UHGV virus genome: UHGV-0088365
Length of the DNA: 16,601 nt
DNA from: a virus
Reading direction: 5' to 3' (one strand)
The notes under the pieces are model-generated. The model was given only the letters and a program-made list of their open reading frames with translations, did not search any database and was not told the DNA's origin. A program made the position numbers and the translations under genes. Positions 2,601-14,926 of this stretch are shown piece after piece; positions within the stretch are counted from its first letter, which is position 1, and every line of letters starts with the position of its first letter.

Positions 2601-3212
2601 TCACGCAGAACTCCTTCTAACCAAAAGAACGCCATCTTCAGAAACAACGTTGCAGGACTTCAGGTAATTCATTGCCTCTTTCGGTAATGGATTCTTTGGA
2701 TCGGCGTTTGCCAGGGATTTCGATAACCTCATGATAAATTTGATCATTACCTTCTGGCGAAGCTTGTGCTCATGAGATAAAGAAAGGTAATAGGAAATGG
2801 TATGGGCTAAACGCTCACGAAGCTGTTCTGTGCCGTGATATACAGCAGCGATATCACGCAGTGCATTGACCAGTTCCCGGTAAATATGCGGAGCAACCTG
2901 GCATTCAATGTTGGTTGGTGACTCATAAATTACATTCAGCCCCAGCTTTTGAGCCAGCTCGTGCTCTGCACGAGCGCCAACTGATTCCTCCCACCCCTTG
3001 AGCAAATAGACCGCATTAGCCGAACGCACCATTGCAAGGCAAATATCTATGTATTCGCTCTCGCAGAGGCCAGCAGGTAACAGCGCCGGATTCAGAACAA
3101 TATGCCCTACCTCCATCAGCTCTTTTGCTTTCGAAAAAAACGCTGTGCGGTTGTAGTCGGGATAACCAGTCATCGGCCCCGCGATGTAAATTTTCATAAT
3201 GCGTTTTGACAT
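2601..3212 (-). CDS. DUF4406-like (nucleoside 2-deoxyribosyltransferase-like fold) protein with an unrecognised C-terminal extension, about 203 aa
   Basis: ATG at 3212 (MSKRIMKIYIAGPMTGYPDYNRTAFF...VGHIVLNPALLP...) preceded by GGGGAAA; TGATG overlap with the upstream small ORF. The IYIAGPMTG...N...NP pattern is typical of the DUF4406 / deoxyribosyltransferase-like family. The track ORF 2601..3239 uses an upstream TTG. Confidence 0.65.
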   Translation of the reverse strand: MSKRIMKIYIAGPMTGYPDYNRTAFFSKAKELMEVGHIVLNPALLPAGLCESEYIDICLAMVRSANAVYLLKGWEESVGARAEHELAQKLGLNVIYESPTNIECQVAPHIYRELVNALRDIAAVYHGTEQLRERLAHTISYYLSLSHEHKLRQKVMIKFIMRLSKSLANADPKNPLPKEAMNYLKSCNVVSEDGVLLVRRSSA

Positions 3213-3367
3213 CAAAGTTTCCCCAGGAACGTTACGCAAAAGTTGATGAGAGCAAAGAGTTCAATGCCCAGCTCAAACAACGCCAGGACAGTGAAAAACA
3301 GGACATATAGCAACCCAATTTCTGAACCGGATTGCTGGTGGATTGCACTAATTGCGACAAGCATCAT
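3212..3367 (-). CDS. Small hydrophobic membrane peptide, about 51 aa, first gene of the leftward operon
   Basis: Not in the ORF track (too short). ATGATG at 3367..3362 preceded by AGGAGG; translation MMLVAISAIHQQSGSEIGLLYVLFFTVLALFELGIELFALINFCVTFLGKL; stop TGA overlaps the ATG of the DUF4406-like gene. Confidence 0.45.
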   Translation of the reverse strand: MMLVAISAIHQQSGSEIGLLYVLFFTVLALFELGIELFALINFCVTFLGKL

Positions 3368-3408
3368 GACCTCCTGATATAGCGTCTGAAAAAAGTATCT
3401 TCATTTTG

Positions 3409-3438
3409 TGTTAGAAAATCAATTTTGATTTTCTAACA
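3409..3438. promoter_or_regulatory. Perfect 30-bp palindrome TGTTAGAAAATCAATTTTGATTTTCTAACA in the divergent intergenic region; putative operator
   Basis: Read directly: the two 14-nt arms TGTTAGAAAATCAA and TTGATTTTCTAACA are exact reverse complements with a 2-nt centre (TT). It lies between the leftward operon start (3367) and the Ref-like gene start (3484). Related half-sites occur at 4060-4069 and in the 13973-14013 inverted repeat. Confidence 0.6.
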
Positions 3439-3483
3439 TGTTTGATCAACCATAGCGGCTATGTAGACAAACCGGGTATTTCT

Positions 3484-4059
3484 ATGAAGCAAAGCTATTG
3501 GGAGAAACAGACACAAAAAGCCCTGCAAAAACTGGCTGATCCGAAATGGCGAGAGGAACAAAGGGCAAAGCGTCTTCAGCAAGCTCAACGCCAGCAGCAG
3601 CGTGCGCGAGAAAAAGCCGCATCGCCTGAATATCGGCAAAAGAAAATTGAAAAAGCGAAGCAATATGAACAGCGAAGAAAAGAGAAGGCCGCTTCTGCTC
3701 CTGTCAAAAAAACTCGCGCGTCACGCGGCCTGAAAGGCAGAACACTCACAGCAGATGAGCGCCGGATACAAACTGCCATCGGTGCTCTCCCCTGCATTGC
3801 CTGCCATATGCACGGACAGCATAGCCCTGTGGTATCCCTGCACCACATCTTCGGAAGAACAGCAGAGAACGCGCATAAATACGTCCTCCCTTTGTGTAAA
3901 TGGCACCATCAACACGCAGCGCCAGCAGAGATCCGCGAGCAATACCCCTGGTTGGTTCCTGTTCATGCTGATGGAAAAATAGGCGGTAAAGCAGATTTCA
4001 GGCGGCACAATGCTGATGAAATGACGTTGTATCAGATGGCGATTGAATTGATGAATTAG
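3484..4059 (+). CDS. Ref-like recombination-enhancement HNH-family nuclease (basic disordered N-terminus plus Cys/His-rich C-terminal core), 191 aa
   Basis: ATG at 3484 (MKQSYWEKQ...). The N-terminal half is very K/R/Q-rich; the C-terminal half has CIACHMHGQ...LHHIFGRT...CKWHHQ, consistent with an HNH-type metal-binding nuclease core as described for phage P1 Ref. The track ORF starts further upstream at 3442. Confidence 0.65.
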   Translation: MKQSYWEKQTQKALQKLADPKWREEQRAKRLQQAQRQQQRAREKAASPEYRQKKIEKAKQYEQRRKEKAASAPVKKTRASRGLKGRTLTADERRIQTAIGALPCIACHMHGQHSPVVSLHHIFGRTAENAHKYVLPLCKWHHQHAAPAEIREQYPWLVPVHADGKIGGKADFRRHNADEMTLYQMAIELMN

Positions 4060-4075
4060 TTTTCTAACATTTTAA
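4056..4075. promoter_or_regulatory. Single copy of the TTTTCTAACA half-site immediately after the Ref-like stop codon
   Basis: TTTTCTAACA at 4060-4069 is identical to the right arm of the 3409-3438 palindrome; no convincing partner arm is seen upstream. Confidence 0.35.
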
Positions 4076-4390
4076 GTTGAATTATAAATTTCTCCGATGT
4101 ACATTCACTACCGATTGGCACACCGGTCAACTTTTTGAGACAAACTGTATAGTTTTTCGTATTATTGCCGCCGCCATACCTATGGCGGTGCAATATAGGT
4201 GGCTGAAAAGCCCCCGTTGACTCACGGTGTTCCAGCCTTTATTGCGCCGCCGCCAGACCGTGGAACAGTCGATGGCGGCTCCGAAAGCAAGGAGTCACTA
4301 CACTATGAACAGCTACTGTCTTTTCCCATCACTCGTTATCCGCCACTCACGCGATAATCTGCATTCTTTACTCGCGCTGGGGGTGTCAAA

Positions 4391-4558
4391 ATGACCGTTC
4401 GCTACCTCAACTTTCAAATCCAGAACATCACTGGCGGTTGCTATGACTGGTTTGTCACTCTCGGAAAAGAAGTGATCACCGGGAAGCTGGATGAAGTGAA
4501 AGCTAAAGCAATGGCCTACGCCTGCAAGCAAGCCCGGAAGAAATCCGCCAAAGCATAA
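4391..4558 (+). CDS. Hypothetical small basic protein, 55 aa, possibly coupled to a 29-aa leader ORF (4305-4394)
   Basis: ATG at 4391 with GGGGGTG upstream; translation MTVRYLNFQIQNITGGCYDWFVTLGKEVITGKLDEVKAKAMAYACKQARKKSAKA. A 29-aa ORF at 4305-4394 (AAGGAG upstream) ends in an ATGA overlap with this start. Both are below the ORF-track size cutoff; the antisense track ORF 4313..4531 looks less plausible. Confidence 0.3.
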   Translation: MTVRYLNFQIQNITGGCYDWFVTLGKEVITGKLDEVKAKAMAYACKQARKKSAKA

Positions 4559-4762
4559 AATACTGACTTTTGCGCCCTGGCCTTATCGTGGGGTATATTT
4601 CTACGGCACCTTAGAAAAACGGGTGCCGGGATTGGAACCTCACGCGGTAGCTCCTTAACTTAGTCAAAGGAGGCTGCCAATATCGCTACTATCCCCACCC
4701 CAACTCATTCTGAATTTATCTGGCGTTTCTATTCCTGCCAAAAACACCTGTATATCTGCGTC

Positions 4763-5140
4763 ATGGCTGCAACCGAAGCAGAAGCTCGTTCATACCTTCC
4801 TGAAGAACCCTGCATTTTTGCCGCACGCTTCACTCTTGATGCGATGGAGATCCTAAATTACTGGAATCTTCTTGTTTGGTGCTTTTCCAGCTTTGTTCAG
4901 GAAAGACTTTATAACTTTTATTGGGTATTTGTAGTGATGCTGATACTGGCATTCCTCACAGCCGGAATTGGCCCGTGGATTGCCTCATTTATCTGGGCGT
5001 TCATGTATAATAAATATTTCACCGTAAATAAGATAAAACAAGGCTTCATTTTTGCTGGTTCTCACACAGAAAATGAGTTGGCTGCTAGCAAGCTAGGATT
5101 GTCATTAAATCAAAACAACTGCAAAACTATTACCGAGTAA
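4763..5140 (+). CDS. Putative small inner-membrane protein (two predicted TM helices); start uncertain (4763 or 4844)
   Basis: ORF-track ORF; hydrophobic segments LLVWCFSSFV and YWVFVVMLILAFLTAGIGPWIASFIWAFM. The body is AT-rich relative to flanks. No clear Shine-Dalgarno at either candidate ATG. Confidence 0.45.
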   Translation: MAATEAEARSYLPEEPCIFAARFTLDAMEILNYWNLLVWCFSSFVQERLYNFYWVFVVMLILAFLTAGIGPWIASFIWAFMYNKYFTVNKIKQGFIFAGSHTENELAASKLGLSLNQNNCKTITE

Positions 5141-8900: not shown

Positions 8901-9619
8901 GAAAGATCAATTCCAGTATTATCAAACAAACTGGAAATATCAGACACCAATTTATTAAAATGCTTGTCATCATTATAGAATGATGTGCTTTTTATAGCGA
9001 CTATAAAATCACATAAATCTTGCGGAGATTCAATGCTAACCCCCTTATTTTTATATAGTTCAATAATACTGCCAACATCAGTATGCAATAGTTTTATCGC
9101 GCCACAAATTTCTCGCTGTTTCGTAACCAAGTCATTAAGTTTATTTTCATTTTCATCTAAGATTTGTTTTGAATATTTAGCGTCATTGGTTGCTTGATTT
9201 AACTTTGTTTTCTTTCTTTGCAATTCTATTCTTTTATCATAATCAGCAACTTCATCTAAATATCTTATTTCAGTGTATAATTTACTTGTTAGCTTAGATA
9301 TCTTCAGTGTGAGAACAGGAGCTAACACAGATGCAAATACTCCATAAATAAATGGGATTACAACGTGATAAACCCACGGGGATACAATCCAATTATCAAT
9401 GAACGGGACATTACCACCAACAGAAACAATAGATAATGTATATAGGATGTCGTCCTTTGACTTTAATATAATTAAAATATCCTTCCAGTTAAAAATTAGA
9501 AAAGAAATGACAACATATGCAAAAACCTTGTTAAATATTTTATCTTTTATTATTTCAGAAAATGATTTTAGTTCTGTTTCATTTATAGACGGATTATCTT
9601 TAACTTTTTCTGACATCAT
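8891..9619 (-). CDS. AT-rich membrane protein (two predicted TM helices) with coiled-coil-rich C-terminal domain, 242 aa; candidate abortive-infection or exclusion-type effector
   Basis: ORF-track ORF; ATGATG start at 9619 with AGGA 7 nt upstream. Predicted TM segments FAYVVISFLIFNW and WVYHVVIPFIYGVFASVLAPVLTL; K/E/N-rich helical C-terminus. Markedly AT-rich. No family recognised. Confidence 0.75.
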   Translation of the reverse strand: MMSEKVKDNPSINETELKSFSEIIKDKIFNKVFAYVVISFLIFNWKDILIILKSKDDILYTLSIVSVGGNVPFIDNWIVSPWVYHVVIPFIYGVFASVLAPVLTLKISKLTSKLYTEIRYLDEVADYDKRIELQRKKTKLNQATNDAKYSKQILDENENKLNDLVTKQREICGAIKLLHTDVGSIIELYKNKGVSIESPQDLCDFIVAIKSTSFYNDDKHFNKLVSDISSLFDNTGIDLSKK

Positions 9620-9897: not shown

Positions 9898-10236
9898 TCA
9901 GGCTGCTTTTTTATTCAGGTTCCGCTGAGAAATAAATTTTTCAGCAGTATTGATACGACTTAACTCTTCCTGAACGCGCATATCATTTTCGACTTCCCAC
10001 AGATCTACTGCGGTCTGAAGATTAATCCAAAAATCTACAGAAGTATCGAATGCTTTTGCCAGGCGATATGCCATATCCATCGTTAGCTTACGATTGTTAT
10101 TAACAAGAGCACTTACGGTGTTACGATGAACATGAAGTATTTCTGCTAACTCGTTGATCTTCAGCTCTAACGGCTCCAGGTATTCGTACAGCAGGATATC
10201 ACCTACGGTCGTCGGTTTTCTGGTTGCCTGTTTCAT
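9898..10236 (-). CDS. higA: HigA-family antitoxin (XRE-type HTH), 112 aa
   Basis: ORF-track ORF; PTTVGDILLYEYLEPLELKINELAEILHVHRNTVSALVNNNRKLTMDMAYRLAKAFDTSVDFWINLQTAVDLW matches the HigA/VapI HTH antitoxin pattern; it lies downstream of a HigB-like toxin gene (toxin-first order typical of higBA). Confidence 0.8.
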   Translation of the reverse strand: MKQATRKPTTVGDILLYEYLEPLELKINELAEILHVHRNTVSALVNNNRKLTMDMAYRLAKAFDTSVDFWINLQTAVDLWEVENDMRVQEELSRINTAEKFISQRNLNKKAA

Positions 10237-10306: not shown

Positions 10307-10609
10307 TTAGTATTTGTGAGGGTCGAGATACAAGTCCTCGGCCTTTCCGTTAACCCACTTAAAAATTAACCTATATTGCTTATTCACCCTTACTGATGAA
10401 TAGCCATTTAGCTTCCCTGACAGTTCCTCATACCGATTACCTGGTGGTGATCTTAAATCCTTACAGGTAGTTGCGGCATTGATAATGTCCAACTTCCGTG
10501 ACAATGTCATATGAATATCAGGAGGTATCTTTCTATGTGGTGTTGAAAATTCAAAAAAATCATCAAGCCACGCATCCCTGAAATCCTTTATGTTAATTTT
10601 TTTGGTCAT
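10307..10609 (-). CDS. higB: HigB-like toxin (plasmid-maintenance killer protein, RelE/ParE superfamily), 100 aa
   Basis: ORF-track ORF; C-terminal half GNRYEELSGKLNGYSSVRVNKQYRLIFKWVNGKAEDLYLDPHKY follows the HigB pattern (...G.R.G.YS.RVN..YRL.F...NG.A..L...DYH) as I recall it; upstream GGAGGA. Confidence 0.8.
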   Translation of the reverse strand: MTKKINIKDFRDAWLDDFFEFSTPHRKIPPDIHMTLSRKLDIINAATTCKDLRSPPGNRYEELSGKLNGYSSVRVNKQYRLIFKWVNGKAEDLYLDPHKY

Positions 10610-13972: not shown

Positions 13973-14013
13973 ATTTGTGTTAGATAATTAACGCATATTT
14001 TCTAACACAAATG
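13973..14013. promoter_or_regulatory. 13-bp perfect inverted repeat CATTTGTGTTAGA-N15-TCTAACACAAATG directly upstream of rdgC; related to the 3409-3438 palindrome
   Basis: Read directly; arms at 13973-13985 and 14001-14013. It shares the core TGTTAGA / TCTAACA with the two sites at 3409-3438 and 4060-4069. No T-run follows, so it does not look like an intrinsic terminator. Confidence 0.55.
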
Positions 14014-14020
14014 GTGAGAA

Positions 14021-14926
14021 ATGAGATCAGTCGCTTTCAAAAATATCTTCATCTATCGTCTTTCACGCGAAGTTAACTGGGATACCGCAGTAGTAAATGC
14101 AGCCCTTAGCAAGTTTGTGTTTACCCCATGCGGTTCTCAGGATATGGCTAAAGCTGGTTGGACCCCAATTCTTGGCGACAACCTCACCCATGAAAACCAG
14201 GGTTTTCTTCTGATGCAGCATAAACGAGAGGAAAAAATCCTGCCTTCTCAAGTACTCAAAGAAGAGTTACAGAAAAAAATCCTGAAACTTGAAGAAGAGC
14301 AAGACAGAAAGCTGAAGAAGACCGAAAAAGATTCGCTGAAGGATGAAGTGCTTCACTCTCTTCTTCCTCGTGCTTTCACGAGAAAATCACTCGCAAAAAT
14401 CCTGATCGACCGCAGCAACCATCTGGTATTCGTTGAGGCAAGCAGCGCCAAAAAGGCAGAGGACCAGCTGGCTTTATTGCGAAAATCGCTCGGCAGCCTG
14501 CCTGTCATTCCATTCACACCACGCGAACCGCTGGAAATTACAATGACCGAGTGGTTTAAAAACGGCTTCCCTGCCGGATTTACAGCAGGTGAAGACGCCA
14601 CATTAAAGGGTCTGCTCGATAATGGTGGTGCCGTTCGCTGTAACAAAGTTGATCTACAGTCCGACGAGATTATGTCTCACATTGAGGCGGGGAAAGTAGC
14701 TACGACCGTTGCAATTAACTGGATGGACCGCGCGTCGTTCAGAGTCAACGATGATATGAGTATCAAAGCCCTGACATTCTGTGATGATCTCTATGACCAG
14801 AACGACGATATCGACCGGGAGGATGTAGCACAACGATTTGATGCTGATTTCGTGCTCTTTACGGGCGAATTATCTGCACTGTTTAACGCGCTGGTGGAGG
14901 CCATTGGCGGTGAAGCAGAACGATAA
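14021..14926 (+). CDS. rdgC: RdgC-family recombination-associated protein, 301 aa
   Basis: ORF-track ORF; long colinear identity with E. coli RdgC as I recall it (FKN..YRLSRE..., FTPCGSQDMAKAGW, REEKILPS, KKTEKDSLKDEVLHSLLPRAF, ASSAKKAEDQLALLRKSLGSLPV). Confidence 0.9.
   Translation: MRSVAFKNIFIYRLSREVNWDTAVVNAALSKFVFTPCGSQDMAKAGWTPILGDNLTHENQGFLLMQHKREEKILPSQVLKEELQKKILKLEEEQDRKLKKTEKDSLKDEVLHSLLPRAFTRKSLAKILIDRSNHLVFVEASSAKKAEDQLALLRKSLGSLPVIPFTPREPLEITMTEWFKNGFPAGFTAGEDATLKGLLDNGGAVRCNKVDLQSDEIMSHIEAGKVATTVAINWMDRASFRVNDDMSIKALTFCDDLYDQNDDIDREDVAQRFDADFVLFTGELSALFNALVEAIGGEAER

Follow-up and report, generated by a model that had tools for sequence, protein, structure and literature searches.

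The open reading frame (ORF) at positions 3484-4059 of a 16,601-nucleotide stretch of viral DNA (UHGV virus genome UHGV-0088365; hereafter the window) almost certainly encodes an orthologue of Ref, the RecA-dependent HNH nuclease of phage P1. The window is that of a D6-like phage-plasmid of the P1 family, and we consider it very probable that the ORF is the ref gene of such an element and is regulated in the manner proposed below. The gene lies on the plus strand, starts with ATG at 3484, stops with TAG at 4057-4059, and specifies 191 amino acids (aa). It is already known and annotated and is an ordinary member of a characterised family.

A Ref-family nuclease gene on a D6-like phage-plasmid

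The predicted protein matched the Pfam family PF16786 (RecA_dep_nuc) with an E-value of 1.7e-36, scoring 124.9 bits where the gathering score is 26.9, and the alignment paired residues 89-190 with positions 2-102 of the 103-position profile. It also matched PHROG 2321, "Ref-like RecA filament endonuclease" (E = 5.5e-82), and P1 Ref (3PLW) was its sole match among PDB chains (phmmer E = 9.4e-53; residues 27-191 of the query aligned with 10-183 of the chain). The general HNH profile PF01844 gave no match at E-values up to 1; structurally, the Ref family belongs to the His-Me finger superfamily (PMC5714182). The original prediction, made from the letters alone, had called this gene a Ref-like HNH nuclease and proposed a profile search against the Ref family as a check. 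All three of the Ref matches bear it out, and the similarity is clear. A longer version of the gene starting at TTG (from 3442) was rejected, as its extra residues are not conserved among relatives. Three minus-strand ORFs antisense within ref (3433-3663, 3585-3848, and 3721-4008) were unsupported and are regarded as chance.

In alignment, the whole protein is 54.7% identical to P1 Ref, with 67.3% identity over the core that was crystallised for P1 (P1 residues 77-186) and 33% over the N-terminus. The HNH (His-Me finger) nuclease core occupies residues 85-191 (3736-4056, plus strand). Its H142 and H161 align with H134 and H153 of P1 Ref, which are the residues changed in the nuclease-dead P1 protein (PMC4713147); H153 coordinates the active-site zinc of P1 Ref (PMC3973344). 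C104, C107, C138, and H141 align with C96, C99, C130, and H133 of P1 Ref, and from the sequence we infer that these four are the ligands of a second, structural zinc site, a zinc knuckle that would precede the beta-hairpin. The catalytic His residues and candidate zinc-ligand Cys residues that the prediction had wished to see located are thus aligned with their P1 counterparts. Its description of the architecture, a lysine- and arginine-rich (K/R-rich) N-terminus joined to a Cys/His-rich core, also holds: residues 1-84 contain 27 K/R, and Cys and His abound in residues 85-191. Of the P1 core residues, every histidine and all but one of the four cysteines are retained, while Cys11 and Cys122 of P1 Ref have no counterpart. 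In P1 Ref, Cys11 gives a disulfide dimer but is non-essential, and the Ref protein of phiW39 is fully active though it lacks Cys11 (PMC4330346).

One further position in the core deserves mention. Residue 144 (3913-3915), which adjoins the active-site His pair, is His in the window, matching His136 of P1, and Tyr in D6 and most D6-like plasmids.

The ref region is 87% identical to phage D6 at the DNA level, and the D6 gene order is matched on both sides of ref. The gene corresponds to D6 orf87 (YP_009914764, "Ref-like RecA filament endonuclease; similar to P1 gene ref"), with 92.1-92.6% protein identity. Matches to the whole window were present in 976 plasmid records, the best at 97.8%, and the ref segment was present in 112 plasmid records. 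Among 5426 complete E. coli genomes, 99 carried ref, every copy being plasmid-borne and single. About 100 plasmids of E. coli and Salmonella carry the gene under the name "Ref family recombination enhancement nuclease"; across the alleles of about 100 plasmids, the ORF is intact and the protein is 89-94% identical to D6 Ref. Among phage relatives D6 alone is close, the Ref proteins of P1, P7, SJ46, RCS47, and phiW39 standing at about 57%.

A repeated motif is the putative operator of a D6-type repressor

The sequence TTCTAACA occurs as four exact copies in the window against 0.49 expected, a number that was reached in none of 200 shuffles. The copies lie at 3409-3416 (minus strand), 3431-3438 (plus), 4062-4069 (plus), and 14000-14007 (plus), and the longer form TTTTCTAACA has a one-mismatch partner at 13978-13987 (minus). 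The claim that the motif flanks ref on both sides thus stands, the flanking copies being real and in excess of chance.

A 19-bp motif has TTCTAACA as its core. The complete D6 genome contains 14 occurrences of TCTAACA, 13 of which share the 19-bp consensus AWWTTARTTTTCTAACAYA, and the 9-mer TTTCTAACA occurs 12 times in D6 against 0.86 expected (14-fold). Twelve of the 14 TCTAACA cores fall within the intergenic (unannotated) 10.2% of the genome (binomial P about 1e-10). The D6 motif sites are found 22 bp before c1, in the interval between repL and a second icd, before hrdC, before the c4 region, in the ref/orf88 interval, before pdcB, and in the cre/orf117 interval. These places match those of annotated C1 operators in P1, namely Oc1, OrepL, Odmt (before uhr-hrdC-dmt), Oc4, Oref, and Omat. 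We built a position weight matrix (PWM) from the D6 sites and scanned the window with it, which returned five strong sites at three loci: putative operators at 3407-3425 (minus strand, 28.1 bits) and 3422-3440 (plus, 20.7 bits) upstream of ref, one at the end of ref described below, and two more at 13976-13994 (minus, 21.0 bits) and 13991-14009 (plus, 14.8 bits). The TCTAA core is common to the D6-type motif and the P1 operator ATTGCTCTAATAAATTT; the P1 operator itself had no match in the window at up to three mismatches. The D6 repressor is 99% identical to the repressor of the window's closest relative. By analogy with P1, the 19-bp motif is probably the operator of the D6-type C1 repressor. 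A literature search did not find D6-type operators described.

Could the motif serve something other than this repressor? It is AT-rich and lies in AT-rich intergenic DNA, H-NS is known to bind the P1 ref regulatory region (PMC4713147), each arm of the upstream site has a -35-like TTGATT embedded in it, and the D6 repressor is 21% identical to P1 C1, so that TTCTAACA might instead mark the target of another phage regulator or of a host protein (IHF or H-NS), or form part of an early-class promoter. We consider this unlikely. Neither H-NS nor IHF sites come near the specificity of an asymmetric 19-bp consensus in which a core of 7 bp never varies, one of the D6 copies is the site 22 bp upstream of c1, and the sites match the positions of the experimentally known P1 C1 operators (c4, ref, hrdC-dmt, and the repL region) and share their TCTAA core. 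Assignment to the C1-type repressor remains the reading that we carry forward.

Two further D6 copies, at 8920-8926 and 9076-9082, lie in an unannotated 1.2-kb gap that runs from the tRNA genes to pmgS. This gap may hold an unannotated repressor-controlled unit.

The upstream double site stands between two divergent units

The two upstream sites make up a double (bivalent) putative operator for the D6-type C1 repressor at 3407-3440, with one site on each strand (3407-3425, minus; 3422-3440, plus). They overlap by 4 bp and form a perfect inverted repeat of 14 + 14 bp (3409-3422 and 3425-3438), in which the TTCTAACA copies are the outer ends. To the left, a string of minus-strand genes begins at 3367, after an AGGAGG Shine-Dalgarno sequence. 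Its first member is a hydrophobic 51-aa protein (3212-3367, minus strand), taken from the ORF list and homologous to D6 orf88; a DUF4406 gene (2601-3239) and more genes follow. The description of ref as divergent from an accessory operon is therefore accurate, and the same layout is found in D6 and related plasmids.

Reading by eye, we found a candidate promoter for each direction. For the accessory operon this is TTGATT-17 bp-GATACT (3394-3422, minus strand), which has 8 of 12 consensus matches and thus falls below the threshold of our promoter scan (9 of 12). For ref it is TTGATT-17 bp-AACCAT (3425-3453, plus strand; 7/12 matches), at a position kept in D6 as TTGAAT-17 bp-AATCAT. Each upstream arm carries a -35-like TTGATT, and the TCTAAC core lies within both spacers; in P1, the operator Oref similarly lies between the -35 and -10 elements, in P2ref. 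Among seven relatives, the left arm of the upstream site is invariant and the right arm, on the ref side, is variable, reading TTTCTAACA in the window and plasmid AP027414 and ATCTAATCA in D6. Because of this pattern, the pair is best seen as one double site common to two divergent promoters and not as an operator private to ref.

Two other observations concern the stretch between this site and the gene. The sequence TTGATCAA at 3442-3449 includes a Dam GATC, adjoins the upstream operator, and is invariant in seven of seven relatives; Dam sites in P1 occur in the cre and kilA regulatory regions. The stretch 3456-3483, which is the 5' untranslated part of ref up to its start, has no homology to D6 or most relatives and is common to plasmid AP027414; the Shine-Dalgarno sequence of the window ref is weaker than the AAGAGG of D6. 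Judged from the sequence, 3456-3483 is a mosaic boundary within the regulatory region.

The downstream site likely serves a c4/immI unit

The third locus is a single putative operator, GAATTAGTTTTCTAACATT (4053-4071, plus strand; PWM score of 24.8 bits), which overlaps the last codons of ref and its TAG, with TTCTAACA beginning 3 bp past the stop. The sequence AATTA[G/A]TTTTCTAACATTTTAAGTTGAATT is identical in seven relatives apart from the one G/A difference. About 110 bp beyond this site, at 4178-4257 on the plus strand, we located an 80-nt C4-like antisense RNA of the immI type (Rfam RF01695). Its predicted fold has a free energy of -35.5 kcal/mol (z = -4.5), a promoter-like sequence, GAGACA-17 bp-TATTAT, lies ahead of it at 4137-4165, and small ORFs and an icd-like frame come after it. 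An Rfam scan of the whole window at gathering thresholds found nothing, and the C4-like RNA appeared only in a permissive scan; matches to isrJ, a trypanosomatid snoRNA, and isrK in the same permissive scan were at chance level and were discarded. By position and by analogy with P1, the element would be a C4 RNA, with a score short of formal Rfam membership. D6-like plasmids have been described as carrying c4 homologues (PMC6799933).

The order in P1 is Oc4, P2c4, P1c4, c4, icd, ant. The positional counterpart of the downstream site is P1 Omat, which overlaps the ref stop codon and is annotated as the controller of the next gene, mat; the functional counterpart is Oc4, which precedes c4. Since a C4-like RNA follows the site here, Oc4 precedes c4 in P1, and Omat controls mat, the downstream site likely serves the c4/immI unit and not ref. 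The c4 leaders of P1 and the window gave no alignment, so the P1 promoter positions are not transferable. The original prediction had treated ref as an operator-bracketed gene: the motif is indeed present on both sides, but the upstream site is shared with the divergent operon, and the downstream one most likely belongs to c4/immI.

No convincing terminator was found from ref to c4, so that read-through from ref is possible. A weak hairpin at 4113-4128 followed by TTTTT was rejected as a ref terminator; its stem has six pairs, including G-T.

An alternative would have the two sites act jointly, with bound repressors drawing ref (roughly 630 bp) into a loop; repression would then be the work of the bracket as such. 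P1 C1 has been reported to loop DNA between operators. Moreover, ref sits between repressor sites in P1 (Oref and Omat, about 666 bp) as it does here (about 630 bp), its stop codon is within the downstream site in both P1 and the D6 type, and the flanking holds despite different downstream neighbours (mat versus c4) and diverged operator sequences. P1 and D6 differ in their downstream genes, operators, and repressors (21% identity), yet the sites stay 630-670 bp apart, and the flanking could on that ground be a conserved device in which looping silences a toxic nuclease or ref read-through is coupled to C4. Each site is nevertheless accounted for by its own adjacent unit, mat in P1 and here the C4-like RNA with its promoter-like sequences. 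We regard joint action of the sites as improbable, and we hold a conserved device to be equally so; separate service to the neighbouring units remains our preferred explanation.

The surroundings of the C4-like RNA show several other features. Blocks of GCCGCCGCCA or TGGCGGC are repeated before, inside, and after it (flanks 4167-4180 and 4246-4292) as direct and inverted repeats, and could form alternative pairings like those of the a/b target sites of P1 c4. An ORF of 29-40 aa (4272/4305-4394) with a GGAG Shine-Dalgarno sequence directly follows the RNA, and its stop overlaps the start of a 55-aa ORF (4391-4558) as ATGA; the overlap suggests translational coupling, as in P1 icd-ant. Relative to D6 and CP056796, the window is without about 1.5 kb that comprises the icd 3' end, the Rha/Ant antirepressor, pmgF, and the start of orf80. 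The deletion junction, at 4858-4869, creates an icd'-orf80 fusion ORF (4763-5140), and with this gap the antirepressor of this immI copy is gone. About 180 bp (the region of an "ash family" ORF) is also absent near 4635 (4630-4639) in the same comparison.

The Ref protein is predicted to retain RecA-dependent nuclease activity

The basic N-terminal region, residues 1-84 (3484-3735, plus strand), is the presumed anchor to DNA or the RecA filament. It has 27 K/R against 9 acidic residues (D/E), the corresponding 76 aa of P1 Ref having 25 and 9, and with its 33% identity to P1 it has a 21-aa insertion and is 8 residues longer. This segment is required to bind DNA and to cleave it efficiently in the P1 and phiW39 proteins (PMC4330346). 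A single-sequence AlphaFold model, which is weak evidence, placed three long helices at residues 5-71 (3496-3696) with a predicted local distance difference test (pLDDT) score of >90; core residues 76-191 all had pLDDT <50 in this model. The corresponding part of P1 Ref is disordered in the crystal, and the disorder that the original prediction ascribed to the window segment would follow from P1 Ref, whereas the model shows helices. The modelled helices may represent a single-alpha-helix or induced-helix segment or may be an artefact of single-sequence prediction.

The core identity of 67% and the retention of all key residues lead us to expect the same chemistry as in P1 Ref, and the window protein is very likely an active RecA-dependent nuclease. 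A Ref relative with lost or changed activity, for example one that only binds DNA or nicks independently of RecA, might be suspected from the 33% identity and 21-aa insertion of the N-terminus, the loss of P1 Cys11 and Cys122, and the Tyr at the P1 His136 position in most D6-type alleles, but it is very unlikely given that the core His residues are all kept (including the H134/H153 equivalents) with three of the four core Cys, that about 100 plasmids each carry one intact copy of the ORF, whose product is 89-94% conserved relative to D6, and that phiW39 Ref is active without Cys11 (PMC4330346).

rdgC and other genes of the window

The original prediction had pointed to rdgC as a second modulator of the RecA pathway on this element. 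The gene at 14021-14926 (plus strand) is an orthologue of P1 hrdC, and its product matched PF04381 (E = 6e-102; 341.4 bits, cut-off 25) and NCBIfam NF001462 (381.8 bits, cut-off 330). Both ref and rdgC are thus confirmed by profiles, but the pair is not special, as P1 has ref and hrdC; a ref gene and an RdgC homologue behind repressor sites are an inherited P1-family plan and nothing new. A gene for a Dam-type methyltransferase follows rdgC, and the P1 order is Odmt, uhr, hrdC, dmt.

A second double putative operator, with sites on both strands (13976-14009), lies 12 bp before rdgC and has the 23-bp core-to-core spacing seen at ref; in D6, the orthologous pair precedes hrdC, at 64116 and 64139. 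Because no divergent gene adjoins the rdgC site, the paired arrangement seems to reflect how the repressor binds and not the presence of divergent promoters. The double sites at 13976-14009 and 3407-3440 have the same geometry, TGTTAGA-16 bp-TCTAACA, 30 bp from end to end, with wholly different inner 16 bp.

Elsewhere in the window, two minus-strand ORFs among the tail genes, at 9898-10236 and 10307-10609, resemble a toxin-antitoxin pair. The resemblance comes from homology to the aligned genes of D6 and CP056796, which in CP056796 bear the names "HigA family addiction module antidote protein" and "RelE/ParE family toxin."

Proposed function and regulation of ref

In P1, experiments have established ref as a gene of the lytic cycle under C1 repression; the N-terminal domain of its product binds DNA and raises the SOS response, the HNH core cuts RecA-bound DNA, and the complete protein stops cells from dividing and makes them more sensitive to ciprofloxacin (PMC4713147). 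P1 Ref nicks first the paired and then the displaced strand of a D-loop (PMC3973344). By analogy with these findings we infer, for the window, the dependence on RecA, the binding of a repressor, the positions of the promoters, and the gene controlled by each site. In the prophage state, ref would most likely be kept off by a C1-type repressor encoded outside the window, which would bind the palindromic double site at 3407-3440 and cover the spacers of the back-to-back promoters. Upon induction, ref and the leftward accessory operon would be derepressed together. The basic segment of about 84 residues would tether Ref to DNA or to the groove of the RecA filament, and the zinc-containing HNH core would nick only RecA-bound DNA, namely RecA-coated single-stranded DNA and both strands of a D-loop. 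As in P1, SOS signalling would increase, cell division would be blocked, and lytic growth would be aided. The third copy of the motif (4053-4071) would most likely belong to the C4-like RNA and the remnant of the immI (icd/ant) operon.

Several observations weigh against this account. The protein as a whole shares only 55% of its residues with P1 Ref, and its N-terminus only 33%, and the window and D6 proteins are known from sequence. No NCBIfam model matches the protein, so the PGAP name must derive from some other rule. The operator assignment rests on analogy, since the repressor gene is outside the window and the D6 repressor has only 21% identity to P1 C1. Our promoter scan, at its 9-of-12 threshold, found no plus-strand sigma-70 site for ref within 3400-3484; the candidate found by eye is weak at 7/12, and the Shine-Dalgarno sequence before the ATG at 3484 is poor. 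The variable right arm of the upstream site faces ref, so the conserved site may mainly serve the leftward operon. Lastly, the match of 4178-4257 to RF01695, while full-length (1-87), reached 37.7 bits (E = 3.6e-5) where the gathering score is 45.

As a textbook accessory function of P1-family plasmid prophages, ref matters little here beyond correct annotation. The D6-type Ref is a natural variant, 55% identical to P1 Ref and with a longer N-terminal tether, that about 2% of complete E. coli genomes carry, and it is of possible interest for programmable-nuclease use and for phage-antibiotic synergy. The 19-bp motif, as a testable set of candidate operators for the D6-type repressor, is an only mildly new by-product.

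Comparison with known systems

The closest relative, D6 orf87, shares with the window gene its neighbours on both sides, the downstream site, and the left arm of the upstream site. It differs in the N-terminus (MQKQS in D6, MKQS in the window), in having Tyr in place of His144, and in the right arm of the palindrome, which is TTGAATATCTAATCA in D6 and perfect in the window.

The putative D6-type operators resemble those of P1 C1 in being asymmetric, about 17-19 bp long, distributed genome-wide before early and immunity genes in either orientation, and at times arranged as overlapping inverted pairs. They differ in the consensus, which is AWWTTARTTTTCTAACAYA for the D6 type, and in the orientation of the paired cores: those of P1 Oc1ab face inwards, whereas the D6-type double sites have their cores at the outer ends (TTAGA-N16-TCTAA).

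P1 Ref and the window protein have in common a basic N-terminal segment and an HNH core, in 186 and 191 residues, respectively. Both are encoded by stand-alone genes on plasmid prophages, with repressor sites, putative ones in the window, at the promoter region and over the stop codon. The neighbours differ, the order being c8, ref, mat in P1 and, in the window, ref followed by c4/immI and divergent from the accessory operon. A leader hairpin with a T-run directly precedes the P1 ref start, and none was seen in the window at this position; P1 Oref is single, whereas the upstream site of the window is a palindromic double. Outside this phage group and in a different host, Gp16 of the Staphylococcus phage PhiNM1, a phage nuclease reported to depend on RecA, is a functional analogue (PMC12817073).

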